Assembly: GCA_041656175.1 (NCBI GenBank)
Contig: JBBAEA010000002.1
Location: forward strand, 3,697-67,696
DNA from: Bradymonadales bacterium
GTDB lineage: Bacteria > Myxococcota_A > Bradymonadia > UBA4248
Direction: 5' to 3'
DNA length: 64,000 bases
Shown here: in pieces, positions 15,333 through 62,524 of the stretch
Numbering within the stretch: position 1 is the first letter of the stretch
Layout: each line of letters starts with the position of its first letter
Translations under genes and position numbers: made by a program
The notes under the pieces: generated by a model
Told to the model about the DNA's origin: nothing
Seen by the model: the letters and a program-made list of their open reading frames with translations, nothing else
Databases searched by the model: none

Positions 15333-15569
15333 GAGACCTTTGCACGGCTAGAAATTGTGAATTTAATTTTACAAATCCGATACAGTTTTAAACAAAATGA
15401 GACATTTTGTAGAGAAATATACGCTGAAAATGCTAATAAAATAAGGCAGGATGACGATACAATGACATTTTATTCGAAAAGCGCTTAAAAGAGTGTTTTC
15501 TTTGGGGAAGGGGGGAAACATCTTTTCTTTGGCACAAAGAAAAGGGTTTCCCCCCGTGCAAAGCTCTCT
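15333..15569 (+). repeat. Family-3 TIR element (MITE-like), copy 3a
   Basis: Left end GAGACCTTTGCACGG, right end CCGTGCAAAGCTCTC (inverted). Internal GGGGGGAAAC...GTTTCCCCCC hairpin. Confidence 0.75.
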
Positions 15570-15717
15570 AGTTATGTTAAGAGTCAAAAATCTTTCGCGT
15601 CACATGCTGTTTGCTCACACAAAATTATTGGATAAAGCTTAAATACTCGGCTAATATATTGCACGTGGTAAAAGCCTATGCCTTTACTGCTCGAACACGC
15701 ATAAAATAAGGAAAGAC

Positions 15718-17796
15718 ATGAAAAAAATTGCGTTTTATTTATCAATCATGCTTATTGGCGCATTTTCAACGATTAGTTGTAATGATCAAGGTGATAACAA
15801 AAGCTGCGACGACGTTGAGTGTGGAGCTGATGAAATCTGCGAAAAAGGAGAGTGCGTTCCCAATGAAGTAGATCTCTGCAAAGACGTCAGTTGCGATCCT
15901 AACCAGCACTGCGAAAAAGGAGAGTGCGTTCCCAATGAAGTAGATCCCTGCAAAGACGTCAGTTGCAATCCTAATCAGCACTGCGAAAATGGAGAGTGCG
16001 TTCCCAATGAAGTAGATCTTTGTAAAGACGTCAGTTGCGATCCTAACCAGCACTGCGAAAAAGGAGAGTGCGTCGATAATACTGAAAATCCTTGCAAAGA
16101 CGTTAGTTGCGAAAAAGGCCAAAGATGTGTAGGGGGTACGTGCGTCGATAGCTGTACAGGCATTGTTTGTATTGACAATCACATTTGTAAAAACGGTGAG
16201 TGCGTTTTAGATAATGACAAACTTTGTGAGAATGTCACTTGTACGACAGGATTTCATTGTAGTGCGGGCGAGTGCGTAAAGATTGATCCTTGCGATGACG
16301 TATTGTGTGACCCTGGTTTTGTGTGCCAGTTGGGCAACTGCTACGACAAAGCCATCTTCCCTTGTCTCGGTGTAACTTGCCCCGATGATCAGGTCTGCGA
16401 AAGCGGCGTGTGCGTAGTCATAGATGAACACGTTGAATTTGAAGAACCCGTGGGCAATGTTGTACCTAACTGGGATTTTGAAGAGTGGGAGCTTAGTTCG
16501 CCTACTTCATGGCATAGTTTTGGAATAGAGGTCGTTGTTAGTAAAAATACAAGTAATCCAAAATCAAAATTGGCTGCCGTTAACATTAATAATCCGCTCA
16601 AAAATAACGCAAGACTAGAGTCTATCCCATTGACGCTTGATGTAGGGAAGTATTATTGCTCTGCTTGGCTTAAAGGCGAAGGCACGGTTTTATTGGGTGC
16701 ACGCCTATCTGATACCGATAATCCTTCGAAGGGAAAATACAAATATAACTCAGAGACAGTATTAAATGGAAGTGGCCCTTATAAAGAGGTCTTCTTTAAT
16801 TTTACTGTCGATGCGACCATTCAAAAGGTAACGATTCTCATTACCGTAAAGAACACGAGCGGAATGAATGTTAACGTTGATGCCATTTCTTGTGTTCGTG
16901 CCGCTGGAAATTGTGACAACGTAACTTGCAAAGAATGGGAAGAATGCCGAGAATATGATGGTAGCTGTCGACCAAAAATAAGTCGCTGTAATACGGCAGA
17001 TGACTGCAGCGAGTGGCAGACTTGTGACGCCAACCATTATTGTGTACTCGCCGAGGGGCGCTGCAAAAGTACAGTGGATTGTGATGAAAATAGTGATAAG
17101 CCAAAATGTGATGTCAAAACCAAAATTTGTGTTGCTGGCGATCCTTGTGAAGGGGTAACGTGCGACGAGTGGAAAACGTGTCAACGCGCATCTGGCTTGT
17201 GTGTACTCGATGAAAATCGCTGTATTACATCAAAGGATTGCCTCAAAGATAAACCTGCATGCGATGTTACGACGCACACTTGTCAGGACTCTACACACGA
17301 TTGTAACATCTTCCCCAACGGTGGTTTCGAAAAATGGGATGACTATTATATACCGTATCACGGCGATAATTACCTTCCCGATTTTTGGTATGGTTTATTT
17401 GATCATCTATGGGACAATAAATACAACTCGGAAATTGATCCCAAAAATATTAAGCAGTACACGACGTCCGTGCACTCTGGGAATTATGCCATGCAAATCA
17501 TTTTCACAGAGTTTGTAGCAGATCGCTTAGCTTCCGATGAATTTGATATTCCACCAGGTGCGTATACATGCTCTTATTGGGTTCGAGGTAAAGGGACGTT
17601 ACGTCACCGCAGCTATTCTTCAGGTGGCGAATCTCCGTACACGGACTTTTACCAAATTGATACCGATAAGTGGCAACGTGTAGAATTTAATGCGCCTGGC
17701 AATGTTCGAGAATTTAGACTTATCCTGTACGTTAGCCAAACTGATGCGAGTAAAGATCACGTACAGATCGACGACGTTGTCTGCACTAAAAACTAA
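15718..17796 (+). CDS. Secreted lipoprotein with tandem Cys-rich modules and two beta-sandwich (CBM/galactose-binding-like) domains; hypothetical
   Basis: 692 aa. Signal with lipobox ISC. Four or more copies of CKDVSC(D/N)PNQHCE(K/N)GECVPNEVD, followed by further C-x-C modules. Confidence 0.65.
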   Translation: MKKIAFYLSIMLIGAFSTISCNDQGDNKSCDDVECGADEICEKGECVPNEVDLCKDVSCDPNQHCEKGECVPNEVDPCKDVSCNPNQHCENGECVPNEVDLCKDVSCDPNQHCEKGECVDNTENPCKDVSCEKGQRCVGGTCVDSCTGIVCIDNHICKNGECVLDNDKLCENVTCTTGFHCSAGECVKIDPCDDVLCDPGFVCQLGNCYDKAIFPCLGVTCPDDQVCESGVCVVIDEHVEFEEPVGNVVPNWDFEEWELSSPTSWHSFGIEVVVSKNTSNPKSKLAAVNINNPLKNNARLESIPLTLDVGKYYCSAWLKGEGTVLLGARLSDTDNPSKGKYKYNSETVLNGSGPYKEVFFNFTVDATIQKVTILITVKNTSGMNVNVDAISCVRAAGNCDNVTCKEWEECREYDGSCRPKISRCNTADDCSEWQTCDANHYCVLAEGRCKSTVDCDENSDKPKCDVKTKICVAGDPCEGVTCDEWKTCQRASGLCVLDENRCITSKDCLKDKPACDVTTHTCQDSTHDCNIFPNGGFEKWDDYYIPYHGDNYLPDFWYGLFDHLWDNKYNSEIDPKNIKQYTTSVHSGNYAMQIIFTEFVADRLASDEFDIPPGAYTCSYWVRGKGTLRHRSYSSGGESPYTDFYQIDTDKWQRVEFNAPGNVREFRLILYVSQTDASKDHVQIDDVVCTKN
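15805..16080 (+). repeat. In-frame 66-bp tandem repeat (about 4 units) inside the Cys-rich lipoprotein gene
   Basis: gatctctgcaaagacgtcagttgcgatcctaaccagcactgcgaaaaaggagagtgcgttcccaatgaagta recurs with fewer than 5 mismatches. Confidence 0.8.
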
Positions 17797-17807
17797 TTTC
17801 ACGCAAA

Positions 17808-17866
17808 GCCCAACACCTTGATTGCAGCCTTTTACGCTAAGCAACGTGTTGGGCGTTTTTGCATGC
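17808..17866 (+). terminator. Rho-independent terminator
   Basis: GCCCAACAC...GTGTTGGGC stem followed by GTTTTTGC, 10 bp after the stop of the Cys-rich gene. Confidence 0.55.
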
Positions 17867-17917
17867 TTTGTTTGTTAAAAATATTGATTTTTGCTTAACC
17901 AAAGGAAGGGATTGAAA

Positions 17918-19276
17918 ATGCAAGTTATAGTCATCGGTGTTGGATATGTGGGTCTCAATACTGCAGCAGCCCTAGCTTACTTAGGACATGACGTTCTTGG
18001 TATTGATAACGATGCGAAGAAAGTCGCCATGTTACAAAATCGCCGACCACCCATTAGCGAAGAGGGCTTAGAGGAACTTTTGGCTCTCGACCTCAAACTC
18101 AAATTTAGCCAAGAACTCGCCGTTGGCCTTGATAATGCCGACGTCATCTTTATCGCGGTTGGCACGCCATCGCGCGAGGATGGAAGTGCTAATATTGACT
18201 ACGTATACGACGCTGCCCGAGAACTAGGTCAAAAGCTCAAACCCAGTAAAGATCAGTGCATTGTGCTAAAATCCACCGTCCCCATCGGCGTCAATGAGCA
18301 TGTCGAGTCGCTGATACGAAAAGCCGTTGTGGAACGTGGATATGACGATGCCCTGCTGCACTTTGCCTCTAGCCCCGAGTTTTTGCGCGAAGGCAGAGCA
18401 TTGTCGGATACCTTTTACCCCGATCGCATCTTAATCGGCACCGATGATGATTATGCCTTCAATATTTTGGAAAAACTCTACAAACGGATTATTTCACGAG
18501 ATTTCGCGCATCCGTCGTTTTTGGAAGCTCTCAAAGAACTGCCCAATAGCCAAATAATTCGCAGCGATCGCGTGTCAGCTGAAATGATAAAATACGCCTC
18601 AAACGCGTTTTTAGCGCTAAAGATTAGTTTTATCAATGAAATTTCCGTTCTTTGTGAGGCGCTAGGCGCTGATGTGAACGATGTAAGTAAGGGTATGGGC
18701 CTAGATCGACGCATTGCTCCCTACTTCCTTAAAGCTGGTTTAGGCTGGGGTGGTTCTTGCTTCCCCAAAGACACGCTTGCCCTCATGAGTATGGCGGAGG
18801 ATTACGGTATTGAGCTCCCATTGATCGAAGGAGCACGGCGAGTAAATGAAGAACAACTCACGCGTGTGGTGCGCAAGGTGCAGGCTGAATTAAAGACCTT
18901 AGCGGGTAAGAAAATTGCCGTTTTGGGTATCAGTTTTAAGCCTCTAACCGATGATGTACGAAACAGCCCTGCTGTAGATTTGGCCATGCAATTACGCGAT
19001 TTGGGTGCAGACGTTTTTATGCACGATCCCGTTGGTGTGAGCAATGCGCGCGCCGTATACGGCGATACGGGCTTACACTTTTGCGATAGCGTTCAAGAGC
19101 TCTGCACTGACTCCGTTTGCAGCATACTCGCCACCGACTGGAACGAATACCGCAGACTCGATTTTGCCGACTTAGCTAAGCGTACGAAGCAGCCCATTAT
19201 GGTCGATGCGAGAAATTTTTTGGATCGCGACACCGTCGAAGAGAGCGGTTGGTACTACCTCGGGTTTGGGCGCTAA
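17918..19276 (+). CDS. ugd: UDP-glucose 6-dehydrogenase (UDP-glucose/GDP-mannose dehydrogenase family)
   Basis: MQVIVIGVGYVGL Rossmann N-terminus. GLGWGGSCFPKD catalytic Cys motif. About 452 aa from the internal Met. Confidence 0.85.
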   Translation: MQVIVIGVGYVGLNTAAALAYLGHDVLGIDNDAKKVAMLQNRRPPISEEGLEELLALDLKLKFSQELAVGLDNADVIFIAVGTPSREDGSANIDYVYDAARELGQKLKPSKDQCIVLKSTVPIGVNEHVESLIRKAVVERGYDDALLHFASSPEFLREGRALSDTFYPDRILIGTDDDYAFNILEKLYKRIISRDFAHPSFLEALKELPNSQIIRSDRVSAEMIKYASNAFLALKISFINEISVLCEALGADVNDVSKGMGLDRRIAPYFLKAGLGWGGSCFPKDTLALMSMAEDYGIELPLIEGARRVNEEQLTRVVRKVQAELKTLAGKKIAVLGISFKPLTDDVRNSPAVDLAMQLRDLGADVFMHDPVGVSNARAVYGDTGLHFCDSVQELCTDSVCSILATDWNEYRRLDFADLAKRTKQPIMVDARNFLDRDTVEESGWYYLGFGR

Positions 19277-19421
19277 GATTGCTTTGATTTATGGGGGCTA
19301 GCGCCCCACTCAGCATGCTGAACTGATTATTTTATTCGATGATGCCGATGAGCGAACTTTATCGTTGCCCAAGCACAGCGCTCTTTTGGCGCCGTGCTGA
19401 GGAAGAACCTTGCTGCTAGCA

Positions 19422-20806
19422 CTACAGATCCGTGATCCGTCCTAAAAATATCAGCGCCTTGGATTTGGTGTCGACAATGGCAAAGAGGAAGGGTCTATCG
19501 ACAATAAATTTGATGATTTCGCGAGCTTTTTCAATATCGCTCTTAGCGGTTCGCGGTTTATTGAGCACAACGGCGGTGGCCGCCGCCGCTTCGGCGCCAG
19601 CTTCATCAATTTCGACAAAGGCTTTATGAAAGATGTTACTGATGTAGAGCTCTTTTTTTCCAGTCATGCCGCTAAAAATCGGCGGCAGCATCCGAGAATG
19701 CCAATAGTGCGCCAAGTGTCTCAAGCATTCCTTTGCCATCAACCTTCAATTCTTGGCGAAACTTTGGCAAAGCCAGTTTCACGAAGCGCATTTGCTTCCT
19801 ATTGAGCATCATGCGGAAGTCTTCAGCCTTTAGCTCATCTTCGAGGTTTGCGAGTGCATAGCCCTCATTCGGTAGAACAAGCAACATGGACAGTGGAGAA
19901 TTCTTGTAGTAAAGGGTAAGTGCCTTGTAGTTCCTCCCAATAAAGACTTCCATGTTGTCGAGCCTGTGCATGGTCGGAACCTTTTTTTTGTTGCGCAGAC
20001 CTTTGAAGCTCTCGTTGCGGGTCTCTGACTTCTTAAACGGTATCTCCCACGGTGCTTTGAGGTAGATCGCGTTGACCAAAACCATGCGTGTGTATTCATC
20101 AATACTTCCGCTAGGCAAGAGACCTTGGATTTTGTTACTCGTCTTTTCGGCCACCCAACGATTGATCTTTTGGCGACTAGGCTCTGGGGCAGCTTCGAAA
20201 TCAAGGGGTTCAATGGCGATGCGGTAGTTTGCTTTGAGTCCCTCCATGAATTCAGGCAAAAAGGAGTAGCGTTTGGCGGGATAAATCTTATTGGCAATGC
20301 GCAGCAGAACCCCCTTAGCGGGTGCATCAAAGATACTTTTTTCAATCTGGAGACTAAGCGCATCCCTGTTGGCGCTATCCCGCTCAAAACCCATGGTTGT
20401 TAAGCAGTTCTGCGCGTGTCTCTCCCCGAGCTCCCGTAATCGTCATGCCCATGGCACGCTCAAAGGAATAGGGCGAGAAGACGACATTTTTCCCTGCGGG
20501 AAAAGTCTTAAGCGCTTGCCAAGCAAAGCGATTATTGGCATCAACCCACTCATCGATAGAGCCATCAAGCAAATGAGCTTCAGCCGAAGGCTCCTCAACA
20601 GCCTGCTGAGCTACGTCGTCTTTGTCTTTTTCCTCTACTTCTTCTTTTACTTCGTCTTTGGCTGCTCCCTGTGCAGAATCAATGGAATTATTGCCGGTTG
20701 CAGGCTGTTCTGCCTTGGGTTGGCAGGCAAAAAACCATAGAGAACACAAAAGGGATAAGCACAAAATGAAATAGTATCGCTGCATATTCACTCCTAAAGC
20801 TAGCAC
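19422..20806 (-). pseudogene. Serpin (serine protease inhibitor) lipoprotein gene split into three overlapping frames by two frameshifts
   Basis: ORFs 20384..20806, 19672..20394 and 19422..19742 together give a full serpin. There is a signal/lipobox N-terminus, the hinge EIDEAGAEAAAATAV and the C-terminus FLFAIVD...LFLGRITDL. Frame breaks lie at a T4 run (~20390) and a T5 run (~19693). Confidence 0.6.
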
Positions 20807-20928
20807 ACAAAACCGTCGATTAATGATCGCCTATTGATTGCGTTGTAGTCCAGTAGTAACGCCTTAGCCAAATTGTCGATTGGGATGGCGCATTTAGCGA
20901 CGTGTTTTGCACTTATGGCTTCCAGCTT

Positions 20929-21076
20929 TGGGGGTAGCGCGGGATCGCTGAGCAAAAGACGCTACAAGCGCACAAAATGCGATGGATGCGCGATTAGCAA
21001 ATACATCGCATTTTGTATTGCGCTTGTTGTCGAATTTTGCGAAGAAGCCCGCGCGTAGGGGGCTGCGCCCCCACAA
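20929..21076 (-). repeat. Family-1 structured element, copy 1d (inverted)
   Basis: GGGGGTAGCGCGGGATCGCTGAGC...CGCGCGTAGGGGGCTGCGCCCCCAC. Confidence 0.8.
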
Positions 21077-21204
21077 AAAAATGAAAATGATGCCACCGCT
21101 AATTTCTATTGTAGCAAAACCTTGTACAAGGGCTAAGGATTTCATACAATCGTGGTGTTTTTCGGATGCCGTGGAGGCGTTCTGCTATACAATATAATGA
21201 GGTC

Positions 21205-22332: not shown

Positions 22333-22376
22333 AGCGTCTTATTCGTTGGATGCTCATGTAACTTTTACACCAAGGA

Positions 22377-25855: not shown

Positions 25856-25877
25856 GCCGCGTATTTTTTTGATTTCC

Positions 25878-26031
25878 TTGTGGGGGGCTAAAGCCCCCCT
25901 ACGCGCGGGCTTCTTCGCAAAATTCGACAATTCGCGCATCATTTTGTGCAACGTTTCGACTATTCGTCGAACCATTGCACAAAATGCGCTCATTGCGCCT
26001 TTTGCTCAGCGATCCCGCGCTACCCCCCCCC
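25878..26031 (+). repeat. Family-1 structured element, copy 1e
   Basis: TTGTGGGGGGCTAAAGCCCCCCTACGCGCGGGCTTCTTCG ... GATCCCGCGCTACCCCCCCC. Confidence 0.8.
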
Positions 26032-26087
26032 AGCTTTAACGCAAAACACCATGCTCCCCCATGCAAAGCGTGAGACCTTTGCACGGC

Positions 26088-26500
26088 CTTTCGTGTTTTT
26101 CGTGGTAAAAATGCTGTTCGTGGCATTCGTGGTTCATAATTTAAAGACACGAAAGGCACGGAAGACCATAACAAATCAAGCTGGTTCTGAAAGAATAAAA
26201 AATCTTCTCGTGTGTTTTCGAGTTTTTCGTGGTTCATAATTTAAAGACACGAAAGGCACGAAAGACCATAACAAATCAAGCTGGTTCTGTAAGAATAAAA
26301 AACTTTTCGTGTGTTTTCGTGTTTTTCGTGGTTCAAAATTTAAAGACACGAAAGGCACGAAAGACCATAACAAATCAAGCTGGTTCTGTAAGAATAAAAA
26401 ACTTTTCGTGTGTTTTCGTGTTTTTCGTGGCAAAAAAATCTTTTCGTGTGTTTTCGTGTTTTTCGTGGTAAAAAAGCTTTCGTGGTAAAAAATCTGTTCG
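26088..26500 (+). repeat. Tandem array A: 3 units of about 100 bp plus 2-3 units of about 38 bp. Each long unit is an imperfect hairpin built from CACGAAA/TTTCGTG heptamers
   Basis: Unit starts at 26126, 26226 and 26325 are near-identical. TTTCGTGG(C/T)AAAAAA recurs. Directly preceded by an orphan family-3 left TIR, GAGACCTTTGCACGGC at 26072-26087. Confidence 0.85.
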
Positions 26501-26632
26501 CGCTTATAAACATAAGGTTATGATGGAAAAAATACGAAGCCTTGCTTCTACCTTCAAAATTTGTCACCACGCCCCTGCTCTCATAAACTTTGCATCAACG
26601 GCGCTTATGGGTGTTAGCGCGTTTCAGGGAGG

Positions 26633-34839: not shown

Positions 34840-34968
34840 TTTGAAAGCTGCCCCTTTCTTTATTAACGCCAAAAATTAGACGGGGCGTCGCGGGGTGTCC
34901 CCGCGGAGGGGGTAGTGGCAAACCCGCGCACAGCGCGGGGTTGACACGTAGGGGGAAACTTCCCCCAC
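34840..34968 (+). repeat. Composite fragment: family-4 hairpin (GGGGGCAGCTTTGAAAGCTGCCCC) followed by a miniature family-1-like terminus
   Basis: GGGGGTAGTGGCAAACCCGCGCACAGCGCGGGG...CGTAGGGGGAAACTTCCCCCAC resembles reverse-orientation family-1 ends. Confidence 0.5.
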
Positions 34969-35206
34969 CAAAGAAAAAGACAGCTATATCGAATCAATCA
35001 GCGTATGCCCAGGGCTTGGATGCCGCCATTTTTTAGGGCTATCATGCGCAGTATGGCTAGGCACGGGCTTGCATATTTTTGGCGGATGCTGTTGTTGAGT
35101 GACGCAATAGTTGAAAGAACGATAAATTTCATGATTTGGCATCTTTTATTCTTGTAATTTGCTGCTACTATAAAGCGTGGGGGTGGAAGAATTTGGTAGA
35201 GAGCAA

Positions 35207-38824: not shown

Positions 38825-39221
38825 CTTTCGTGTCTTTAAATTTTTAACCACGAAAGCCACGAAAACACACGAAAAGTTTTTTATTCTTAGATGTCCAGCT
38901 TGATATGTAATAATCTTTCGTGCCTTTTGTGTCTTTAAATTTTTAACCACGAAAGCCACGAAAACACACGAAAAGTTTTTTATTCTTAGATGTCCAGCTT
39001 GATATGTAATAATCTTTCGTGTATTTCGTGGCAAAAAAAAAGCTTTCGAGCCTTTCGTGTATTTCGTGGCAAAAAAAAGCTTTCGAGCCTTTCGTGTATT
39101 TCGTGGTAAAAAAGCTTTCGAGCCTTTTGTGTATTTCGTGGCAAAAAAAGCTTTCGCGCCTTTCGTGTATTTCGTGGTAAAAAAGCTTTCGAGCCTTTTG
39201 TGTATTTCGTGGCAAAAAAAG
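38825..39221 (-). repeat. Tandem array B: 2 units of about 100 bp plus 6 units of about 37 bp. Reverse-complement, diverged relative of array A
   Basis: Units at 38835 and 38934 are near-identical. Then six copies of CGTGTATTTCGTGG(C/T)AAAAAAAGCTTTCGAGCCTTT. About 85% identical to the array-A unit on the opposite strand. Confidence 0.85.
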
Positions 39222-39224
39222 GCC

Positions 39225-40787
39225 TTATTGATTTAAAGAGTGCAACGCTTTTTTTGCCATATCGACGATTTCGATCGACTGTGATTCTTTGCTGTCTTCA
39301 TCGATGGCGGAAACTTCCAAAATTCCGTTGACATCGATTTTGAAGCTCACTTTGATTTTCGGGATCATACGTGGGGCTGGGCGGATGCCGCTCAACTCAA
39401 AGGCTCCCAAAAACGTGTTCTCCTCGCAGCGCTTACCCTCGCCTTGGTAAACCGATATGACGACGCTCGATTGATTGTCGCGGTTTGTGGTAAAATGGCG
39501 ATGCACGCGGTGAGGAACTTTAGTGTTTTTGGGGATTAGCGGTACAAAGACCGAGTTTGCCGCCTCGATCCCAAGGGTAAGCGGTGTGATATCGAGCAGC
39601 AGAAGATCGCTTTGTGGCGTAGCCAAGCTCATCGCCTGTATCGCAGCGCCAATACCGACCACCTCGTCTGGGTTCATGCTCGTGTTCAGCGGCTTTGAGA
39701 GCCACTTTTGCACCATTTCGCGAATGAGCGGCATACGCGTCATTCCGCCGACCATAATGAGCTCATCCAGATCCTTGATCCGTAGCCCCGCGTCGCGCAA
39801 CACGCGCTCGCAGATCCTTAAAGAGCGCTCCACGAGCGGCAAGCACAAGTTCTCGAAATGCGAGCGGTAAACGACTTCCGAAATTCCAAGATTCTCGTTG
39901 ATATTTGGCGATATTCGCGGCAGCTTGATTTCAGTGTGTTCGTTTTGAGATAGCTGAATTTTGGCGTATTCCGCCGCATCGACTATACGCTGCATCGCCA
40001 TCTGATCGAGCGAAAGATCGATGCCGTGCTCTGATTTGAAGTTCTTGATTAACCAATCGGCTAGTATTTGGTTAAAGTCGTTGCCACCAAGAAAAGTGTC
40101 GCCGCCAGTGCCAATGACGTTGAACAGCCCCTCGCTGATTTCGAGCACCGAAACGTCGAAGGTACCACCGCCAAAATCGTAAACCGCCACGCGCTGATTT
40201 TTCTCTGAGCCAAAGCCGTAAGCAAGCGCCGCGGCAGTGGGTTCATTGATGAGGCGCAGAACCTCTAAACCTGCGAGTTCCGCAGCCTCTTTGGTGGCGG
40301 TTCGCTGGACGTTATCAAAGTGCGCTGGTACCGAAATAACGGCTTGCTTAACCTCGCAGCCAAGGGCATACTCGGACATTCTTTTGACTTTTTTAAGTAC
40401 AGCGGCGCTTACTTCCACAGGGCTTATACGTTGCCCACCGATTTCACAAAGAGGCATGCCATCGGGATCCGCGACGACGCTGTAGCTGATATATGGCAAG
40501 GTTTTTTGTACGTTGTCGGAGGAGAATTTTTGCCCAAGTAAACGCTTGGACGAGTGTACCGAAAGGTAGGGTTGCGTCGCCATCTGCGCTTTTGCCAAGT
40601 GCCCCACGAAAAACCGCCCTTCGCGATTCAAGGACATCACCGAGGGCATGGTGGAGTGACCTGTCTCATCGAGTATTATTTGTACCGCGCCGCCCTTTAC
40701 GACGGCAGCGCAAGTGTTTGATGTACCTAAATCAATACCGAGTACGGGCATGCAACTCCTGTTTACTAACAAGGGGCTAAAATTCAA
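39225..40787 (-). CDS. Hsp70-family ATPase with shortened substrate-binding domain (DnaK/HscC-like paralogue)
   Basis: 520 aa. [31 protein letters not shown]. No long C-terminal lid or EEVD region. The start could be the internal Met at 40751. Confidence 0.75.
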
Positions 40788-40796
40788 AAACTAAAG

Positions 40797-41032
40797 CCTT
40801 TGCAAGGCTAGTAATAATGAATTTTATTTTATAAATTCTATACAGTTTAAAACAAAATGAGACATTTTGTAGAGAAGCATAAGTTAATAGTGCTAATCAT
40901 ATAAGACAGGTAGAAGATAGAATGACATTTTATTTGAAAATTGCTTAAAAGAGTGTTTTTTTTGGGGAGGGGGGGCGAGGGGAAGCTTTTTGCTTTTGCA
41001 AAAAGAAAAAAGCTTCCCCCCGCGCAAAGCTC
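40797..41032 (+). repeat. Family-3 TIR element, copy 3b
   Basis: CCTTTGCAAGGCTAG...ACAAAATGAGACATTTTGTAGAGAA...GCTTAAAAGAGTG...GGAAGCTTTTTGCTTTTGCAAAAAGAAAAAAGCTTCC...GCGCAAAGCTC. Confidence 0.7.
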
Positions 41033-41092
41033 AAAAACTGGCAATTTCCCAAAAAACGACTGTGCGCCTTAAAACTCTACAGCGCAAAACGC

Positions 41093-42526
41093 CTATTTTT
41101 TAAAGAGTTTGTCAAAAAGACCGCCCTTCTTAGGCGTCGGATTTTCTACGGGAATATTGCCCAAAGAGCGCACATTCTGCCGTTTTGGGAGCTCTGCATC
41201 GTTTAATTTGATATCATCCAAAAACGAGCGACGCTGCGTTTCTGGCGCATCCTTCGTTGACAAGGCGGCTTGAAGTTGAATTTTGGGCGACTCGCGACTT
41301 TCAGCGCTGTCTTTCGCCTGCGTTCCCTCGCCTGCCAGCAACGCGGCATCAGGCTCTGCCTCTTCTACTTCACGCTCTTTCGGCTCAGCGCTTACGCTGT
41401 CCTCGATTTTTCCCAATAGTTCCGAGATGCTTTCGCGCGTTTCAGTTTGCTCGGGTGTCGGCTGCACAGAATCTTGCTCTTGCTTATCCTCATCGCGTTG
41501 CATCTGCTGCAGGAGTTCTTGCATTTGTTGAGAGCTGTCATCCTCTCCACCATGCGAGGGGTCCACCATTCCAAGTAGCGTTGGTTCTTGAGCTATATCG
41601 AGTTCCGCCGAATCGCTAAGCCCTAACAAGGAAACACCCCTCACTTCCTCCGAAACACGCTTCACGCTGAGCAACGACTCGCTAGTTTCGTCCTCCCCTA
41701 GGAGTTGGTCACTGTTGGGGTCAATATTCGGCGCTGCCAACACAGCCGCCGCGGGTTCGTCATCATCGTTTATCACCGCACTCTCAATATCCGAGCGCAA
41801 TTCCTCGTTCGCACTCACAAGTGCCGCCAAATAGTCTTTGCTCGCGTTTGCCTCAAGATCCCGCGGTTCTTCATAAACCCCGCTTACCTCAAAGCCAGCC
41901 CCCACGCCAAGATTCTCGCCGCTGGAGCGCGTCGCCGATAGCTCTGGCGCAGCCAGCCCCACACCAGCGAACAAATCATCTAGACCCGCGTCAATATCGG
42001 TCTCACCGAAGAGATCAAAACCCAAAGAATCGCCAGCCTTCGCCTCTACAATGTGCAACTTAGGTTTATCCTGCGTCGCTTCAGAAGCCGCAGTATCAGT
42101 CGCTTGGGAGGAGGATTGCGCCGTTTCAGTCGCCTCGGCAGCCTCCATCGCTGGCGGTGTCGAGTCGCGCTCTGTTAAACCGCCGCGCTGCTTATGCTCC
42201 TGGATTTCCTTGGCCTTTAAGACCGCATCGACCACTTCCTTAAAGGGCCGATTAATCCGATTAAGCGAGAGTAGCATCCCCGACATCTGCGAAGACGGCC
42301 CCCCCACAAACGGAATCTCCTTGCGCACGACGCCCTCGCCGATATACACCTGCGAATCATCGGCGAGTCGGAACTCAAAATGCACCTCGGTTCCAATGGG
42401 TCGCGTCGAACGCGTACGGATAAACAGCCCAGCACGACTAATCAGCGGCGCAATTCCCTCAATAAACGCCTCCTGCGTCGTATACTTAAGTGTCGCCTTA
42501 ATCATCGCAATACGGTTCGCATCCAC
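41093..42526 (-). CDS. PilZ-like domain protein with long acidic low-complexity C-terminal region
   Basis: 477 aa. N-terminal ISRAGLFIRT...LADDSQVYIGEGVV resembles myxobacterial PilZ/TIGR02266-type domains. The rest is a D/E/S/A-rich disordered region. Confidence 0.45.
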   Translation of the reverse strand: MDANRIAMIKATLKYTTQEAFIEGIAPLISRAGLFIRTRSTRPIGTEVHFEFRLADDSQVYIGEGVVRKEIPFVGGPSSQMSGMLLSLNRINRPFKEVVDAVLKAKEIQEHKQRGGLTERDSTPPAMEAAEATETAQSSSQATDTAASEATQDKPKLHIVEAKAGDSLGFDLFGETDIDAGLDDLFAGVGLAAPELSATRSSGENLGVGAGFEVSGVYEEPRDLEANASKDYLAALVSANEELRSDIESAVINDDDEPAAAVLAAPNIDPNSDQLLGEDETSESLLSVKRVSEEVRGVSLLGLSDSAELDIAQEPTLLGMVDPSHGGEDDSSQQMQELLQQMQRDEDKQEQDSVQPTPEQTETRESISELLGKIEDSVSAEPKEREVEEAEPDAALLAGEGTQAKDSAESRESPKIQLQAALSTKDAPETQRRSFLDDIKLNDAELPKRQNVRSLGNIPVENPTPKKGGLFDKLFKK

Positions 42527-42635
42527 TGTTCACCTCACAAAATAGCATTGCCCCCGCGTCCACGCATATTTATAGCACATTCCTTTGCTCAAGCAATATT
42601 ATGTAGCTTTTGGCATTTAAAAGCCTTTTCTTTTT

Positions 42636-42781
42636 TTGTGGGGGAGCGCCCCCTACGCGCGGGCTTCCTCGTAAATATCACAATTCGCGCCTTATTTTGT
42701 GCGCTGTATCGGCTATTCGCCAACCCAGCGCACAAAATGCGCTCATGGTGCTATTTCCTCGGCGATCCCGCGCTACCCCCC
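42636..42781 (+). repeat. Family-1 structured element, copy 1g
   Basis: TTTGTGGGGGAGCGCCCCCTACGCGCGGGCTTCCTCG...GGCGATCCCGCGCTACCCCCC. Followed by TTAAGGAAACTCTGATATATG and an inverted family-4 terminal fragment at 42803-42835. Confidence 0.8.
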
Positions 42782-42902
42782 TGCGCCCTTAAGGAAACTC
42801 TGATATATGGGGGCTACCGCCCAAAACCCCGCTTCGTTTTGTGGGGCGCTGCTAAGGCTATCGCCCTTAGAACCCTTTTTTTGTGTAGCGTCTTGAATTT
42901 CT

Positions 42903-45041: not shown

Positions 45042-45044
45042 AAG

Positions 45045-45117
45045 TGGCTAGGGACGGAATTGAACCGCCGACACGAGGATTTTCAGTCCTCTGCTCTACC
45101 TACTGAGCTACCTAGCC
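45045..45117 (-). tRNA. tRNA-Phe (anticodon GAA), copy 1
   Basis: Reverse complement reads GGCTAGG-TA-GCTCAGTAGGTAGAGC-A-GAGGA-CTGAAAA-TCCTC-GTGTC-GGCGG-TTCAATT-CCGTC-CCTAGCC-A. Confidence 0.85.
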
Positions 45118-45132
45118 CTAGGGCGAAACAAA

Positions 45133-45205
45133 TGGCTAGGGACGGAATTGAACCGCCGACACGAGGATTTTCAGTCCTCTGCTCTACCTACTGAGCTACC
45201 TAGCC
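45133..45205 (-). tRNA. tRNA-Phe (anticodon GAA), copy 2
   Basis: Identical 73-nt sequence 88 bp downstream of copy 1. Confidence 0.85.
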
Positions 45206-45351
45206 ACAAAACGCTCTCACAATAAAGAGCGCAGCCACTTACTACGCGAAGTCAGCACGCGTGTCAAGGAATTTCATTTCTCACTGAAAAGTATGAAGAA
45301 CTTATACCTAAGTCGTAAAATTATCCCGTATTTGGCTGTTCTTAAACGCTA

Positions 45352-45430: not shown

Positions 45431-45441
45431 CAAGAGCAAAG

Positions 45442-47755: not shown

Positions 47756-47865
47756 CTAAACCATTGTCTCCTTGTGTTTGATTTCGGCGTTTTGTGCGGC
47801 AAAACTCTTGAGTTAACGCGCTTTATTCGGCATTTATTGAAAAAACACTTCCTTTTGCGTTGCTC

Positions 47866-49854
47866 TTACATTACTTCTAAACACTCTATACCAAGAAGCG
47901 TTAATCCGTTTCGCAAAACGCTACCGCAGGCATCTACAAGTCGCAGTCGAGCTTCGCGAAGTTCGGCGTCTTCGCAAGTGAGTATGGGGTGTCCCGCCCT
48001 ATCGGTAAAGATGAAGGCAAAGCCCTTACAAAGGTTAAAGAGGTATTCCGCAAGTTTTGAGGGGTCCCGCGCGTCGCACGCCCACTGCAGTGCAGCTTTA
48101 TACTGCGCAAGTTGCAGCAGGATTTTTCGCTCTTGCGGCGACTTGAGGGAAGCCAAAACATCTTTTGAAAAGCCTTCGTCAGCTTCGTACTTAGCTTTTC
48201 GTAAAATCGAGCGCGTTCTTGCGTAGTTCATGAGGCAATATGCACCCGTGCGACCTTGCAGATCGATGGATTTTTCGGGGTTAAATTCCATCCAAGAGCT
48301 CGGAGTAACGTCCAGTAAATAATAGCGAATAGCGGCTAGTGCGATGACTTGGGCGCGTCTCTCCAACTCGGCTTCGTCGGCGTCAACGTAGTATTCACGA
48401 TCCGATTTCTCGTCCATCAGTGCTTTGACCATTTCTTTGATCTCTACAATCAGGTTGTCGGTATCAACCACGGTGCCCTCACGACTCTTCATTCTACCCG
48501 TAGGTAGCGTCACCATGCCGTAGGAGAGGTGCTCAAAGCGGTCTTTAAGATCTTCGCGTAGGTCTTCTAAAATTCCAAATAAAACCCTAAAATGATGGTT
48601 TTGTTCGTCAGCAACCACATAAATCATGTGATCATACGAAAATTCGTCAAATCTGGCTAATGCTGTGCCGATGTCTTGAGTCATGTATACGGTAGTACCG
48701 TTAGCCCGAAGCAGGATTTTGTCGCCTTCTAGTTTCATGCGGCTAAGGTCGTAGGCGACAGCATTATCGGGCAGTTGGTGAAAGATCTTTCGCTCCAAGC
48801 CGTCCAGTACGATGTCTTTGCCCAGTTTGTAGGTTTCACTTTCGTAGTAAATTTTATCAAAGCCTAGGCCGAGTACATCGTAAGTTTGCATAAAGCCACT
48901 GATAACCCAATCGTTAAGTTGTTTGGATAATCGGCGTACTTCGGGGTCGCCTTCTTCCCACTTTACGAGTAGTTCAGTGGCGCGTCGTCCTAGTTCGCTT
49001 TCTGTGTTGAAGTACTTGTCTTTGTAGTTCGCTTTAAAGCTGTCGCGCAAGTCGGCGGGGGCTTTGCCTTTGCGCTTATTTTCGGCTTTTTGGTAGTAGG
49101 CATCATATTGTTTCTTAGCGCGTTGAGCGTCTGGTCCTTCTAGCCACGCGTCGTAGGCTTTGGCACCGCTTTCGGAGGCTAGCCATGCGTCGTATTCTGC
49201 TTGAAACTCTTGCTCAAAGCGTACGTAGTAATCGCCGATAAAGTGGTCCCCCTTGGTATGGGTGCTCTCGGGGGTTGCGTCGTTTGCGAAGCGTTGGTAG
49301 CTCAAAATCGATTTACAGATGTGTATACCGCGATCATTAATGATGTTAACGCGTTTTACATCGTAGCCGCAAGCACTGAGTATGCGTGAGACGGACTCGC
49401 CGATGACGTTATTGCGCAAGTGACCCAAGTGCTGAGGTTTGTTAGTGTTGGGGCCAGAAAACTCGACAACTACGCGTTCGTTATTGGCCGCTTTCGTGCC
49501 ATAACAGTCTTTAGCCTCGAGTATTTCGCCCACAACGGCTTTAGACAATAAGTCGGTTCTGTACTGCATATTGACGTAGGGGCCAGCGGATTCTACCCAG
49601 TCTAAGTACGGAGAGTCAGATAGCATTTGTGCAAGTTTCGCGGCGATGGCGACGGGGTTATTCTTCTCTTTTGGCTCTAAGTTTTGCAGTTTCCCGCGCA
49701 AGCAAAAGCATGCAAAAGCTACGTCTCCTTCGGAGGTGTCTGGTACAGGGGAGAGCGAAAGATTTTGTGCGAGCTCTTGGGGCGCGCCTAAGGAAAGGGT
49801 TGCCGCGCTTAACGCGGACATTAATTCTGATTGGAGGGCGTCGAAGCTGTGCAT
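47866..49854 (-). CDS. argS: Arginine--tRNA ligase (long form)
   Basis: 662 aa. Class-I HIGH-region NKPQHLGHLRN. C-terminal DALS anticodon-binding domain, with insertions. Confidence 0.8.
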   Translation of the reverse strand: MHSFDALQSELMSALSAATLSLGAPQELAQNLSLSPVPDTSEGDVAFACFCLRGKLQNLEPKEKNNPVAIAAKLAQMLSDSPYLDWVESAGPYVNMQYRTDLLSKAVVGEILEAKDCYGTKAANNERVVVEFSGPNTNKPQHLGHLRNNVIGESVSRILSACGYDVKRVNIINDRGIHICKSILSYQRFANDATPESTHTKGDHFIGDYYVRFEQEFQAEYDAWLASESGAKAYDAWLEGPDAQRAKKQYDAYYQKAENKRKGKAPADLRDSFKANYKDKYFNTESELGRRATELLVKWEEGDPEVRRLSKQLNDWVISGFMQTYDVLGLGFDKIYYESETYKLGKDIVLDGLERKIFHQLPDNAVAYDLSRMKLEGDKILLRANGTTVYMTQDIGTALARFDEFSYDHMIYVVADEQNHHFRVLFGILEDLREDLKDRFEHLSYGMVTLPTGRMKSREGTVVDTDNLIVEIKEMVKALMDEKSDREYYVDADEAELERRAQVIALAAIRYYLLDVTPSSWMEFNPEKSIDLQGRTGAYCLMNYARTRSILRKAKYEADEGFSKDVLASLKSPQERKILLQLAQYKAALQWACDARDPSKLAEYLFNLCKGFAFIFTDRAGHPILTCEDAELREARLRLVDACGSVLRNGLTLLGIECLEVM

Positions 49855-49883
49855 GGTGCTACTTTAGTTTATGCGAATAAATT

Positions 49884-50036
49884 GAGGGGGAGCGCAAGAT
49901 CACCCAAAAAAGTCGCCTATTGCCGCACGCTGTGCGAAGGCCGAGCGTATAGCGAGGACTTTGCACGGCGTAAAGCGGCAATTGGCGAATTTTGAGGGAA
50001 GCTTGCGCGCGGGGGAGTAATCCCCCGCCTTCCCCA
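49884..50036 (-). repeat. Family-1 structured element, copy 1h (inverted)
   Basis: GAGGGGGAGCGCAAGATCACC...GAGGGAAGCTTGCGCGCGGGGGAGTAATCCCCCGCC. Confidence 0.8.
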
Positions 50037-50123
50037 AAAAGAATTTGAAATTTAAGCTCGCTGGTCGCACGAGCGGCCTAATGCTTAAGACTTTTTGGCC
50101 GCGTAATCAATAGCTGCGACGAT

Positions 50124-51035
50124 TTAGTTGAGCACGCAGGCTTTTCCGAATTGGTAGGCGTCGATGTATTCGCGCTCGGGGGCGAGGTGCTTTTCGAGCC
50201 TTTTGAGGATGCGGCTTTCGAGTTGGCGAGCGCGTTCGCGGCTGATGGAAAAGACGTTGCCGAGCTCTTGTAAGGTTAGCGGAGACTCACTGTTCATGCG
50301 AAGTTGCCAGATTTGGGAGTCGCGGCCTGTGAGTTTTTGTTCAAATTCTTCGAGGCTAGCTTTGATGCGGTTTGCGGCAAATTGTTGGTCAATAAGCTCT
50401 TCGGCGCTGTCGTCGTGGGAGGCGATGGAATCAATAACGCAGTTATCGCTATCTTCGCCGCCGATGGGCGCAAAGAGCGAAAGTTCGTGGTTGCCGAGGC
50501 GTTGTTGCATTTCGGTAATTTCGTTCTCGCGTACGCCAAGGGACTGGGCGAGTGCGGCGGTGGTGGGGGTTTTGCCGGCTTGGCGGAATTTTTGCTCTTC
50601 TTTGTGTAAGTTGTAGAAGAGTTTGCGCTGGTTTTGCGTGGCGCCGATTTTGACGAGCCGGTGGTTATCCATCAGGAACTTGAGGATGTAGGCACGGATC
50701 CAGAATTGGGCGTAGGTGGAGAGTCGGATGTTTTTACTGACGTCGAATTTTTCGACAGCAAAGAGCAAGCCAACGTTTCCTTCTTGAATGAGGTCAAGAA
50801 GTTGGGCGTTTTGGCTTTGGTAGTCGCGGGCGATTTTAACAACCAAGCGAAGATTAGCGTTGATGAGGCGTTTTTTGGAGATCTCGTCGCCGCTTTGTGC
50901 TGCGCGTGTTAGTGCGTATTCCTCTTCGCGCGTGAGCACTTGATAGCTTTTGATGCTATCGAGGTATTGTTGCAGGGATGTCGTTGCGACTTGTCGTTTG
51001 TAGTTGTTTGTGCGCTTTTGCAGCGAGTATTTCAT
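50124..51035 (-). CDS. rpoH: RNA polymerase sigma-32 (heat-shock sigma factor)
   Basis: 303 aa. Sigma-70 regions 2-4. RpoH box ATQNQRKLFYNLHKE. Confidence 0.75.
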   Translation of the reverse strand: MKYSLQKRTNNYKRQVATTSLQQYLDSIKSYQVLTREEEYALTRAAQSGDEISKKRLINANLRLVVKIARDYQSQNAQLLDLIQEGNVGLLFAVEKFDVSKNIRLSTYAQFWIRAYILKFLMDNHRLVKIGATQNQRKLFYNLHKEEQKFRQAGKTPTTAALAQSLGVRENEITEMQQRLGNHELSLFAPIGGEDSDNCVIDSIASHDDSAEELIDQQFAANRIKASLEEFEQKLTGRDSQIWQLRMNSESPLTLQELGNVFSISRERARQLESRILKRLEKHLAPEREYIDAYQFGKACVLN

Positions 51036-51206
51036 ATTAAGCCCTCAGCTCGATGTGGCTTCGATGATCTAAGCACAATCACTTGTTGTGCGCTTTGGAA
51101 GCAATTATTGCCGTGAAGGTTTTAGGCACTCATGCGCCCACATCTACACGGCTCATATACTATACGAACGAGAGTCTCTTTTGGATCGGCTCTTGCGTAA
51201 AATACT

Positions 51207-52745
51207 TTAAAAGAACCTAATCAGGGGGAAGATACCTATTGCCTCTAAGGTGAAAACAATAATATAGAGAATGACAATACCAACGCCGACTATAATGAAT
51301 AGGAATTTGGGATCGGAATTTGCTTTTTTGAGCAAGGCTTTTGCGTCTTTATTGGAGGAACTGGTACTTTCGGCGAGCTCGGCGCCAAGGGAATCAGGCT
51401 CGTTAGTGGCGCTTTGCTTGATTTTTGCGCTGTTTGCAAGAACGCTCGCGGGGGTATCAATACTGGTAATAAGGAGCAAGTCCTCGTAGATTTCAGCCGA
51501 TGTTGCGTAGCGCTCTTGGGGTAATTTGGCTGCTGCCTTTCGCAGTAGTGCTGCTAAGGCTGTATTGTTCCATGACTTGGGTAGTTCCAGCTCATTGTAG
51601 GACTGCTTGTAGGCGATATCAAAGAGGCTAGTGCCTTCAAAGGCGGGTTTTCCGAGAAGCATTTCGTAAAAGATGAGCGCGAAAGCGTAAACGTCGACGT
51701 TTGGGCTGAGCACTTCGTTTCGGAGTTGTTCAGGTGCCATGTATTGCGGAGAGCCGTAGACTTTGTCGGTGCTCATGGTGATGTCATGGGCGGTGAATGC
51801 GCTTTCAGCGCTCATACATTTTGAGAGGCCAAAGTCGAGTATTGTTACGAGGTCTTCGTATCCCTCTTTGGAGCTGAGGATAATGTTGGCGGGTTTAAGA
51901 TCACGGTGAACAATGTCGCACTTGTGTGCTTCGCGTAGTCCCTTGAGAATTTGCAGAGCGATTTTGCGCGCTGTTAGGAACGGTATACGCCCTTGCTCAA
52001 GTCGCTTTTCCAGAGTTTCGCCATCGAGCAGCTGCATTGTCATCCAAAGTGCGCCATCACTGCGTTTACCAAAGTGGTAGAGCCGCACAATGTTGGGGTG
52101 TTCAAGTCGTGAAACCAGATCGACTTCGCGCTCAAAGCGTTTTTGTATAGAGTCGACCTCGTTCTCGGCTTCAGGGAGTATCATTTTGAGCGCTTCGTCG
52201 CGGCCAAGATTGAGGTTTTTAACTTTAAATACCGCACCAAAGCCGCCTTTTCCCAGCATTGACAAAATGCGGTAGTGCTCAAAGTTATCGCCAAAGGTGG
52301 GAAGCTGATAGTCACGATCTTCCCAGCCCGATGAATTTAGGAGCTGGATTGTCATCTCCGCGCCACTTTGCTTTGGCGCGTGTTTAGGCGCGCCATCAAG
52401 TTTAATGGTCATCTCCGCGCTATTTTGCTTTGGCGCGTGTTTAGGTGCGCCATCAAGTTGAATGGTCATCTCCCCGCTATTTTGCTTTGGCGCGTGTTTA
52501 GGCGCACCATCAAGTTTAATGGTCATCTCCCCGCTACTTTGCTTTGGCGCGTGTTTAGGCGCACCATCAAGTTTAATGGTCATCTCCCCGCTACTTTGCT
52601 TGGGCACATAGTCATGTACAAGATCCTGCTCCGTTGTTGTATCATCAGCATGAGCTTCTGTGTTGTGGGAGCTAACAACAGCATCATGAGTCTCAATGGT
52701 ATGGGGGCCGCTATTTATTTCACTTTGTTCATAATCGTTATGCAT
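51207..52745 (-). CDS. Ser/Thr protein kinase (Hanks type) with N-terminal 20-aa tandem repeats and a C-terminal TM anchor
   Basis: 512 aa. GKGGFGAVFKVK. HRDLKPANIIL. DFGLSK. Five copies of APKHAPKQ(S/N)SGEMTI(K/Q)LDG. Confidence 0.8.
   Translation of the reverse strand: MHNDYEQSEINSGPHTIETHDAVVSSHNTEAHADDTTTEQDLVHDYVPKQSSGEMTIKLDGAPKHAPKQSSGEMTIKLDGAPKHAPKQNSGEMTIQLDGAPKHAPKQNSAEMTIKLDGAPKHAPKQSGAEMTIQLLNSSGWEDRDYQLPTFGDNFEHYRILSMLGKGGFGAVFKVKNLNLGRDEALKMILPEAENEVDSIQKRFEREVDLVSRLEHPNIVRLYHFGKRSDGALWMTMQLLDGETLEKRLEQGRIPFLTARKIALQILKGLREAHKCDIVHRDLKPANIILSSKEGYEDLVTILDFGLSKCMSAESAFTAHDITMSTDKVYGSPQYMAPEQLRNEVLSPNVDVYAFALIFYEMLLGKPAFEGTSLFDIAYKQSYNELELPKSWNNTALAALLRKAAAKLPQERYATSAEIYEDLLLITSIDTPASVLANSAKIKQSATNEPDSLGAELAESTSSSNKDAKALLKKANSDPKFLFIIVGVGIVILYIIVFTLEAIGIFPLIRFF
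52345..52610 (-). repeat. 60-bp in-frame tandem repeat (about 4.5 units) within the kinase gene
   Basis: gctttggcgcgtgtttaggcgcaccatcaagtttaatggtcatctccccgctactttgct recurs. Confidence 0.8.
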
Positions 52746-52965
52746 TTACTCACCATTTATGCCTTTACATCAAATACTTAGAGCCAGTGTTCCTAAGAGA
52801 CACGTATCCTGTACAACGAAATATATAACATTATATCGCGCCACTTTCCAGTTGTGAGAAAGAGCAAGCGCTAAGACTACGTTGATTTAATGCGAAAACA
52901 ATCAAAAAAAACTAACGAAAGAAAGGATGGCTATCCTAGCTAGTTTGAACTCGGTCAAAAAATCG

Positions 52966-53062
52966 AAAAATACTTTTCTTAGCAAGTTTGATGCGGGTTC
53001 CAGTTTCAAAGAACAAAATACTTGTCTTAGCAAGTTTGATGCGGGTTCCAGTTTCAAAGAAC
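52966..53062 (+). repeat. 51-bp tandem duplication (2 copies) abutting the left end of MITE 3c
   Basis: CTTAGCAAGTTTGATGCGGGTTCCAGTTTCAAAGAAC occurs twice. Confidence 0.7.
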
Positions 53063-53388
53063 GAGACCTTTGCACGGCTAGAAATAACGAATTTAATTTT
53101 ACAAATTCGATACAGCCTTAAACAAAATGAGACATTTTGTAGAGAGATATAAGCTAAAATGCTAATAAAATAAGGCAAGGCGAAGGTAAAATGACGTTTT
53201 ATTCGAAAAGCGCTTAAAAGAGTGCTTTCTTTTTAGTGCCACAGCCGTCCAGGCTGTGGCCGCTTCGCGCGCGGCCTCAGCCGCGACCAATCGCTGACAT
53301 CCATGTCGCGATTGAAGGGGAGGGGGGTACGGGGGGAACCTTTTTTCTTTTGCAAAAAGAAAAAAGGTTCCCCCCGCGCAAAGCTCTC
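53063..53388 (+). repeat. Family-3 TIR element, copy 3c, with a 100-bp internal insertion
   Basis: GAGACCTTTGCACGGCTAGAAATAACGAATTTAATTTTACAAAT......GGAACCTTTTTTCTTTTGCAAAAAGAAAAAAGGTTCC..GCGCAAAGCTCTC. Extra GC-rich hairpin GCCACAGCCGTCCAGGCTGTGGC. Confidence 0.75.
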
Positions 53389-62519: not shown

Positions 62520-62524
62520 GCACT

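Follow-up and report, generated by a model that had tools for sequence, protein, structure and literature searches.

A large mosaic family of probable miniature inverted-repeat transposable elements in a Bradymonadales genome

Introduction

What is the short, hairpin-rich repeat that recurs three times in a housekeeping segment of a Bradymonadales chromosome: a mobile element moved by an enzyme encoded elsewhere, or a structural or regulatory sequence dispersed because it is useful? The repeat lies in a 64,000-nucleotide stretch of a metagenome-assembled genome (MAG) labelled 'Bradymonadales bacterium' (GenBank assembly GCA_041656175.1, contig JBBAEA010000002.1, positions 3,697 to 67,696), referred to here as the window. 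An earlier note on this DNA had interpreted the repeat as a MITE (miniature inverted-repeat transposable element), defined by its terminal inverted repeats (TIRs) and mobilised by a transposase supplied in trans.

That interpretation gains support from 5-bp target-site duplications, at least 81 sharp-ended copies and the nesting of copies within copies. With a probability of roughly 85%, the element is a genuine MITE, that is, a non-coding, non-autonomous DNA transposon mobilised in trans via 15-bp termini with a 5-bp stagger. The call is made because TIRs, constant-length duplications, a small non-coding size and many dispersed copies occur together. The sequence family is new, and the kind of element is ordinary.

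Structure of the element

The anatomy of the family was drawn from 45 full copies found genome-wide. Each copy is bounded by a 15-bp TIR, with left end GAGACCTTTGCACGG and right end GAGAGCTTTGCACGG, which match at 14 of 15 positions and carry a fixed C/G mismatch at position 5 (GAGAC.. on the left, GAGAG.. on the right). Similarity between the two ends stops past these 15 bp, where 8 of 23 positions match. Boundaries are sharp, with flanks that are unrelated upstream of GAGACC and downstream of GCTCTC across the 45 copies. From the left TIR, the element runs through an AT-rich stretch, a palindrome with an 8-bp stem, an A-rich stretch and the conserved AATGACATTTTATTCGAAAAG, followed in the right part by a small stem with a T-run, G-runs, a hairpin of ~20 bp and the right TIR. 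The core palindrome and the long hairpin near the right end, both described in the earlier note, stand up to DNA folding (z = -5.4 for the palindrome, ACAAAATG-AGA-CATTTTGT; for the hairpin, which lies just inside the right TIR, z = -6.2 and -8.3 in two tested copies). AATGACATTTTATTCGAAAAG reaches 98% column identity outside the search seed and opens an 8-codon frame behind a GGTGA motif. Together with a 15-codon frame, this is all that the consensus offers as reading frames (by eye), leaving no coding capacity for a transposase.

Full copies measure 202-350 bp and share on average 94% identity with the consensus (range 82-98%). Most belong to a class of ~245 bp; a class of ~202 bp lacks exactly the terminal hairpin, from the G-run through the C-run, and a class of ~325 bp contains an 83-bp module. 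The terminal hairpin occurs in two main sequence types, different on both arms and still able to pair, and a few copies have an inverted hairpin loop (GGCAC vs GTGCC). The loop inversion and the precise loss of the hairpin point to DNA-level behaviour of the palindrome. Copies are strongly mosaic, in that left type, middle type, module, hairpin type and right-TIR variant are found in nearly every combination.

Region read-out and alignment identify a single repeat family with three copies in the window, all in the same orientation, as the earlier note had claimed. An nhmmer profile built from the 45 copies likewise finds exactly three (E = 3e-79, 3e-76 and 2e-66), its remaining matches in the window being only reverse-strand self-matches of the terminal hairpin. 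The copies and their parts are as follows.

15333-15568, plus strand: MITE copy 1, 236 bp, short form without one G-run
15333-15347 and 15554-15568: left and right TIRs of copy 1
15392-15410: core palindrome of copy 1
15510-15555: terminal hairpin of copy 1
40793-41034, plus strand: MITE copy 2, 242 bp
40788-40792 and 41035-41039: left and right target-site duplication AAACT of copy 2, read from the sequence
53063-53388, plus strand: MITE copy 3, 326 bp, long form
53063-53077 and 53374-53388: left and right TIRs of copy 3 (right TIR GAGAGCTTTGCGCGG on the minus strand)
53235-53317, plus strand: 83-bp module in copy 3, 68% GC, three consecutive hairpins, z = -7.1
53330-53376: terminal hairpin of copy 3
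52967-53062, plus strand: tandem duplication in the left flank of copy 3, 48-bp unit x2.0

Identity to the consensus is 97% for copy 1, 90.5% for copy 3 and 83% for copy 2. Copy 2 is old and diverged, and both of its ends are mutated (AAAGCCTTTGCAAGG ... CCGCGCAAAGCTCAA, that is, AAAG... / ...TCAA), so that the left end quoted in the earlier note as common to all three copies is not present there. The right end quoted in that note is real but 2 bp too short, the element running to ...CCGTGCAAAGCTCTC (…GCTCTC). The direct duplication reported to precede copy 3 does exist, with a unit of 48 bp rather than 51 bp; its last 22 bp (..TTTCAAAGAAC) are also the left flank of two other genome copies (L016, L070; L numbers denote loci outside the window).

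Evidence for transposition

Target-site duplications provide the footprint of transposition. A perfect 5-bp duplication flanks 23 of 47 candidate end pairs genome-wide (ends set as GAGA... / ...TCTC), and shifting one flank by plus or minus 1-3 bp as a control leaves 0-4 perfect matches. The 22 oriented duplications are 77% A+T, vs 52% for the sequence background, and a few apparent 6-bp duplications occur. In the window, the search for duplications proposed in the earlier note succeeds for copy 2 only, where AAACT has the geometry of the genome-wide duplications; none flanks copy 1 (GCGAT / TAGTT) or copy 3 (AGAAC / AAGCT).

Copies have also inserted into copies, once in L026 and once in L045, and L067 and L070 carry solitary termini and partial left-end duplications with the same 5-mer. 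The family is intergenic, 42 of the 45 copies overlapping no open reading frame (ORF) of at least 150 aa. Orientation relative to neighbouring genes is unbiased (19 vs 15 on the left side, 23 vs 18 on the right).

Some further regularities accompany the insertion sites. Read in element orientation, the 22 copies with intact duplications favour A 2 nt upstream of the duplication (19 of 22) and T 4 nt upstream (15 of 22), with no mirror-image preference on the other side. Several such copies lie within 10 bp of an ORF end. Inverted MITE pairs surround single genes at two loci, in the layout of a composite transposon: one pair (L013, 6233-6479 and 9611-9784) encloses a paralogue of the FGE-sulfatase/EGF family and the other (L055, 6875-7119 and 9796-9979) an 818-aa ORF.

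Copy number and host genome

A metagenome contig scan for the 21-nt core returns 78 exact matches on 72 contigs, all in metagenome Ga0265293, and many of these contigs end within a copy. The genome therefore holds at least 81 exact-core copies, to which variant-core copies are added, for a family total of ~90 or more in this one Bradymonadales genome.

Protein look-ups connect the metagenome loci with the window. Three proteins encoded at loci L066 and L030 are identical to entries of the 'Bradymonadales bacterium' MAG: ClpB to MFA5624535.1, a PcrA-like helicase to MFA5623997.1 and NAD kinase to MFA5624534.1. The same accession series includes the window proteins MFA5623524.1 and MFA5623527.1. 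These exact identities mean that the metagenome loci are the rest of the window's genome. The idea that they came from a different organism, based on their sharing only repeats and no orthologous genes with the window, was rejected on the same evidence, and an argument from independent insertion sites was dropped because the loci and the window are the same MAG. In other samples, short-read assemblies of this species have breaks within copy 3 of the window (L091-L093), which is consistent with a high-copy repeat.

Search for the transposase and points against mobility

If the element moves in trans, its transposase might be encoded in the same genome, of which ~736 kb (the 64-kb window and ~672 kb of further loci) was searched for a parent element. 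Pairs of TIRs 0.6-4 kb apart enclose only ORFs that look like housekeeping genes (judged by translation, with Pfam for window ORFs and one paralogue family), and Pfam and NCBIfam scans find no transposase among the window ORFs. A generic search for an inverted repeat, a duplication and an ORF yielded nothing resembling an insertion sequence (IS). The only multicopy protein family in the loci consists of the FGE-sulfatase/EGF paralogues.

Known IS ends offer a second route to the enzyme. Like IS1634, ISH3 and the relatives of IS701, the element has a duplication of about half a helical turn in AT-rich tracts (PMC2266710). The end consensus is C-----YT for IS1634, CRGT for ISH3 and ---YACT-Y--YR for IS701, and IS1634 duplications are AT-rich and 5-6 bp long (PMC2266710). 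GAGACCTTTGCACGG fits none of these three end patterns, so that duplication length alone agrees. GAG-type ends do occur in IS5-group and ISAzo13 elements, but the duplications there are 2-4 bp.

This mismatch at the termini is one of several results that weigh against a MITE. About half of all copies, including copies 1 and 3 of the window, are without an intact duplication. Neither an ORF-bearing element bounded by the TIR nor a multicopy transposase-like protein was found in the ~736 kb, and the search for a matching IS that the earlier note had proposed came out negative in this part of the genome. Beyond it, the 21-nt core has no exact match in GTDB contigs (one genome per species), the core and the 23-nt left end have none in IMG/VR, and a distant blastn search of plasmids with the 245-bp sequence finds no match. 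The comparison of orthologous loci that the earlier note had also proposed reveals no presence/absence polymorphism among four conspecific assemblies. The negative IS and polymorphism checks do not refute mobility, because their coverage is too partial and because the duplications are direct footprints of transposition.

Comparison with related genomes

All 4 conspecific assemblies, at 99.3-99.8% identity across 5-15 kb, contain copies 2 and 3. The nearest ArgS relatives share 62-71% identity and come from uncultured Myxococcota MAGs, many of them from the ruminant gut. In a collection of 5.8 billion proteins, the only closer relatives are L099 (71% in ArgS) and L098 (54% in a p405 homologue), both from SRR25909830. 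A blastn comparison of the element with 22 kb of L098 and L099 returns only chance-level matches of 10-15 bp (E >=2.2), so that the MITE family is not detectable in this sequence. The orthologous junctions there are rearranged, with no clean empty site.

Proposed mechanism and alternative explanations

Under the MITE interpretation, a transposase supplied in trans, probably of the DDE type, would recognise the 15-bp termini (left GAGACCTTTGCACGG, right GAGAGCTTTGCACGG) and join the element to a target cut with a 5-bp stagger, preferably in AT-rich intergenic DNA. Repair of the stagger would leave the 5-bp direct duplication. Amplification to ~90 or more copies would have been followed by point mutation and precise loss of the terminal hairpin, and the copies would have diversified further through gain or loss of the 83-bp module and extensive exchange of segments. 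The palindrome, the mini-ORF with its Shine-Dalgarno-like sequence and the terminal hairpin may be leftovers of the ends of a parent IS. The family appears to be currently quiet.

The alternative that fares best, although it is quite unlikely, is that the repeat is a Tn3-family-derived miniature element (TIME), moved by a Tn3-type transposase through replicative transposition. Those TIMEs that proved mobile in experiments are 262 bp long; they insert in AT-rich targets with 5-bp (sometimes 6-bp) duplications and are known in mosaic and composite derivatives, and TIME terminal repeats, like those of the Tn3 family, span ~38 bp and are homologous across the family (PMC4133298). Apart from the termini, TIMEs come nearest to the Bradymonadales repeat in size, length of the duplication, AT-rich targets and mosaicism: copies of ~245 bp lie between AT-rich duplications of 5 bp, a few apparently of 6 bp, are strongly mosaic, and flank genes as inverted pairs in L013 and L055. 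The termini differ, however, being 15-bp GAGA ends rather than repeats of ~38 bp, with similarity that is lost beyond the TIR (14 of 15 positions, then 8 of 23). Tn3-family terminal repeats start with GGGG, and the GAGA start is unlike them (by eye). Nor was a Tn3-type transposase or resolvase seen in the ~736 kb.

Very unlikely is the idea that the repeat is a functional cis-acting or RNA element (a terminator or promoter cassette, a small RNA gene or a protein-binding site) that was dispersed because it is useful, its transposon-like ends being incidental. The 98% column identity of AATGACATTTTATTCGAAAAG, the stable hairpins, the compensatory differences between the two hairpin types and a terminator-like stem followed by a T-run at 53207-53228 would all suit such a function, as would the fact that the left end faces a minus-strand gene start in all three window copies. 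Genome-wide, however, there is no orientation bias toward flanking genes, a scan of two copies finds no sigma-70-like promoter, and terminator-like matches are not clearly above shuffled controls. A promoter/terminator cassette was accordingly rejected, given the lack of orientation bias and of promoter-like matches. The element has no Rfam match; passes over the window return only tRNAs, and copy 3 gives only sub-threshold microRNA-hairpin matches. Loop inversion (GGCAC/GTGCC) and precise hairpin excision are events at the level of DNA, not RNA, and duplications placed exactly at the ends are left by transposition, not by selection. Exaptation of single copies is possible.

It is scarcely credible that a tyrosine (Y1/RAYT) transposase dispersed the repeat as a REP/BIME-type or IS200/IS605-type palindromic element. 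Hairpins are abundant in the element, and its module consists of three GC-rich palindromes, always placed at a TTTCTT|GGGG junction and having neither repeats nor a target duplication of its own. But Y1-transposase elements (IS200/IS605, REP/RAYT) have neither target duplications nor TIRs, the whole element has both, and the idea could apply at most to the module, for which flanks homologous in both host families make a shared module an equally good explanation.

The 83-bp hairpin module

The GC-rich hairpin insert that the earlier note had seen in copy 3 is present, with a size of 83 bp rather than about 90 bp and with three hairpins. Its description as a nested insertion carried by one copy was too narrow. 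The module occurs in 13 of the 45 full copies, always at the junction CTTTCTT | GGGGA, and at the corresponding junction in a sister family of repeats, here called X (L052 2064-2146, L055 6551-6633, L062 3861-3943). In L038 it lies next to another copy. It has no TIRs or target duplication of its own.

The module is more uniform than its surroundings, with a pairwise identity of 98.5% vs 91.8% for the rest of the element, or 98.3% vs 95.7% in the most homogeneous subgroup. Of the module's 79 columns, 7 are variable, vs 77 of 244 in the rest (37 of 92 among the G/C columns of the rest). The mosaic combinations mean that presence of the module defines no clade. The data fit a module that arose recently or is under selection and is passed between copies by recombination.

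Solitary termini and sister repeats

Termini of the element also occur alone. The terminus pattern GAGASCTTTGCNCNG (<=1 mismatch) has 7 matches in the window, where 0.15 are expected; a 25-nt pattern with 0.00 expected matches belongs to family X and not to the MITE family. The solitary left TIR that the earlier note had placed ahead of a tandem array is indeed there, abutting an array of TTTCGTG type, and the same type of junction between TIR and array exists at L060:3601. The far end of the array that follows 26072 showed no right TIR.

26072-26086, plus strand: solitary left TIR GAGACCTTTGCACGG, abutting the TTTCGTG-type tandem array (to ~26505)
55242-55256, minus strand: solitary right-TIR-like remnant GAAAGCTTTGCACGG, one mismatch, with CCCC in front as at genuine right ends
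19317-19366, minus strand: fragment of sister family X, ~50 bp

Family X shares its right half with the MITE (T-run, optional module, G-run, hairpin, C-run, GCGCAAA) and has a TIR-like left end, GAGAsCTTTGCTCTG, followed by a different interior (CTCAGCATTTTCGTAAACGAG ... CATCGAATAAAATAATCAGTTCAGC ...). Seven MITE copies sit in a composite of MITE and family X. A conserved left flank on seven copies had been considered as a gene start; it contains no conserved ORF and is part of the sister repeat. Diverged left halves of the MITE lie upstream of ClpB (L066) and of other genes (L022, L030, L050), and show older waves of the family.

The terminus GAGAsCTTTGC... thus caps at least three unrelated interiors, those of the MITE, family X and the tandem-array element. 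One terminus on several elements is what would be expected of a shared transposase-recognition site. Since the terminus caps these unrelated interiors and no cognate IS lies in the ~736 kb, it may be the recognition site of an uncatalogued or a single-copy domesticated transposase. Separately, the module could be a functional unit under selection of its own, such as a structured RNA or protein-binding platform, carried along on MITEs instead of neutral filler. This pair of proposals is rather unlikely.

Other kinds of repeat were also observed in the window. Tandem arrays at 26087-26505 and 38825-39248 consist of units rich in TTTCGTG/CACGAAA with periods of ~36-38 bp and 99 bp. The length of the array at 38825-39248 seems to vary between strains, the adjacent Memo/AMMECR1 gene being called at 492 vs 524 aa. 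A repeat of ~165 bp, found on both strands and composed of a GGGGGG-N4-CCCCCC hairpin and then TACGCGCGGGCTTC, has apparent copies throughout the window. This 165-bp family is older than the MITE, because related repeats occur in the relative with 71% ArgS identity (L098, L099). Its apparent copies are as follows.

2440-2596: 165-bp repeat
4049-4220: 165-bp repeat
12328-12500: 165-bp repeat
20926-21088: 165-bp repeat
25863-26031: 165-bp repeat
34858-35016: 165-bp repeat
42616-42831: 165-bp repeat
49876-50040: 165-bp repeat
55256-55427: 165-bp repeat
60612-60809: 165-bp repeat
62523-62688: 165-bp repeat

Genomic context and other features of the window

The window is a housekeeping chromosomal segment of ~48% GC with four tRNAs, and is dense in other intergenic repeat families. 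It encodes DnaN, phosphofructokinase, ArgS, Fmt, GlgX, a MurC-like protein, an RpoH-like sigma factor and an Hsp70-like protein, as well as a Ser/Thr kinase, components of a maltose ABC transporter and a Type ISP restriction enzyme. Copy 1 lies between a tRNA-Pro gene (15194-15267, minus) and an ORF at 15718-17796 (plus). Copy 2 is flanked by a PilZ-like gene (41093-42526, minus) and the start of the Hsp70-like gene (39225-40787, minus), and the right end of copy 3 is 3 bp off the stop codon of an ORF at 53392-54609 (minus).

Several genes of the window have features of note. The 165-bp repeat borders the Type ISP restriction-modification gene (55451-60478, 1675 aa) on both sides, at 55273-55331 and 60654-60712. 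In L098, the FdrA and desulfoferrodoxin genes are adjacent with no Type ISP gene between them, an arrangement that suggests insertion of this defence gene. The Ser/Thr kinase ORF (51207-52745) contains a tandem repeat at 52351-52605 (57 bp x4.5, 94% matches). The period of this repeat is a multiple of three, and the kinase measures 512 vs 493 aa between conspecific assemblies, which corresponds to one unit fewer. Two tandem tRNA-Phe(GAA) genes, 99% identical, occupy 45044-45206; at this position, between the aldehyde dehydrogenase and GlgX genes, the 71%-ArgS relative has a gene for a 201-aa CTP-transferase-like protein. A 240-aa ORF with a serpin domain (19672-20394, minus) covers only positions 76-295 of the 370-residue profile and overlaps a second minus-strand ORF (20384-20806; region 19672-20806), so the serpin gene may be frameshifted or split.

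Relation to known elements and significance

MITEs are known from several prokaryotes, including the Correia/NEMIS elements of Neisseria, MITEAba12 of Acinetobacter and the MITEs of Coxiella (PMC10969869, PMC6382973, PMC5896051). Like these, the Bradymonadales element is small, non-coding, multicopy and intergenic, has TIRs, duplications and a stable internal structure, and would depend on a transposase acting in trans. Unlike them, it has no sequence relative in the collections searched and no cognate IS in the ~736 kb covered. Duplication lengths also differ, at 5 bp here, TA for Correia elements and 9 bp for MITEAba12, and a family of ~90 or more copies is high for a bacterium. A full-text literature search with the TIR string returned only unrelated mitochondrial primers, and no paper linking MITEs with Bradymonadales was found.

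The sister array element, rather than the three window copies, invites comparison with BrickBuilt of Porphyromonas gingivalis (PMC4596501). Both join a MITE terminus to a tandem array (26072 onward and L060:3601 in the Bradymonadales genome) and are strictly intergenic. Unlike BrickBuilt, the Bradymonadales arrays have one visible TIR, and their unit length and sequence are unrelated.

The family accounts for the shared break points at which short-read assemblies of this uncultured Bradymonadales lineage fragment, and its copies offer a ready marker for strain typing. It flags ~90 intergenic sites at which a hairpin-rich element stands beside gene starts or ends, including those of chaperone, kinase and tRNA genes in the window. 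For the lineage, it represents a large MITE expansion with a modular, recombining architecture. The transposase that acts on the 15-bp GAGA... terminus and generates the 5-bp duplication would, if it belongs to a new family, add to the catalogue of bacterial transposition.

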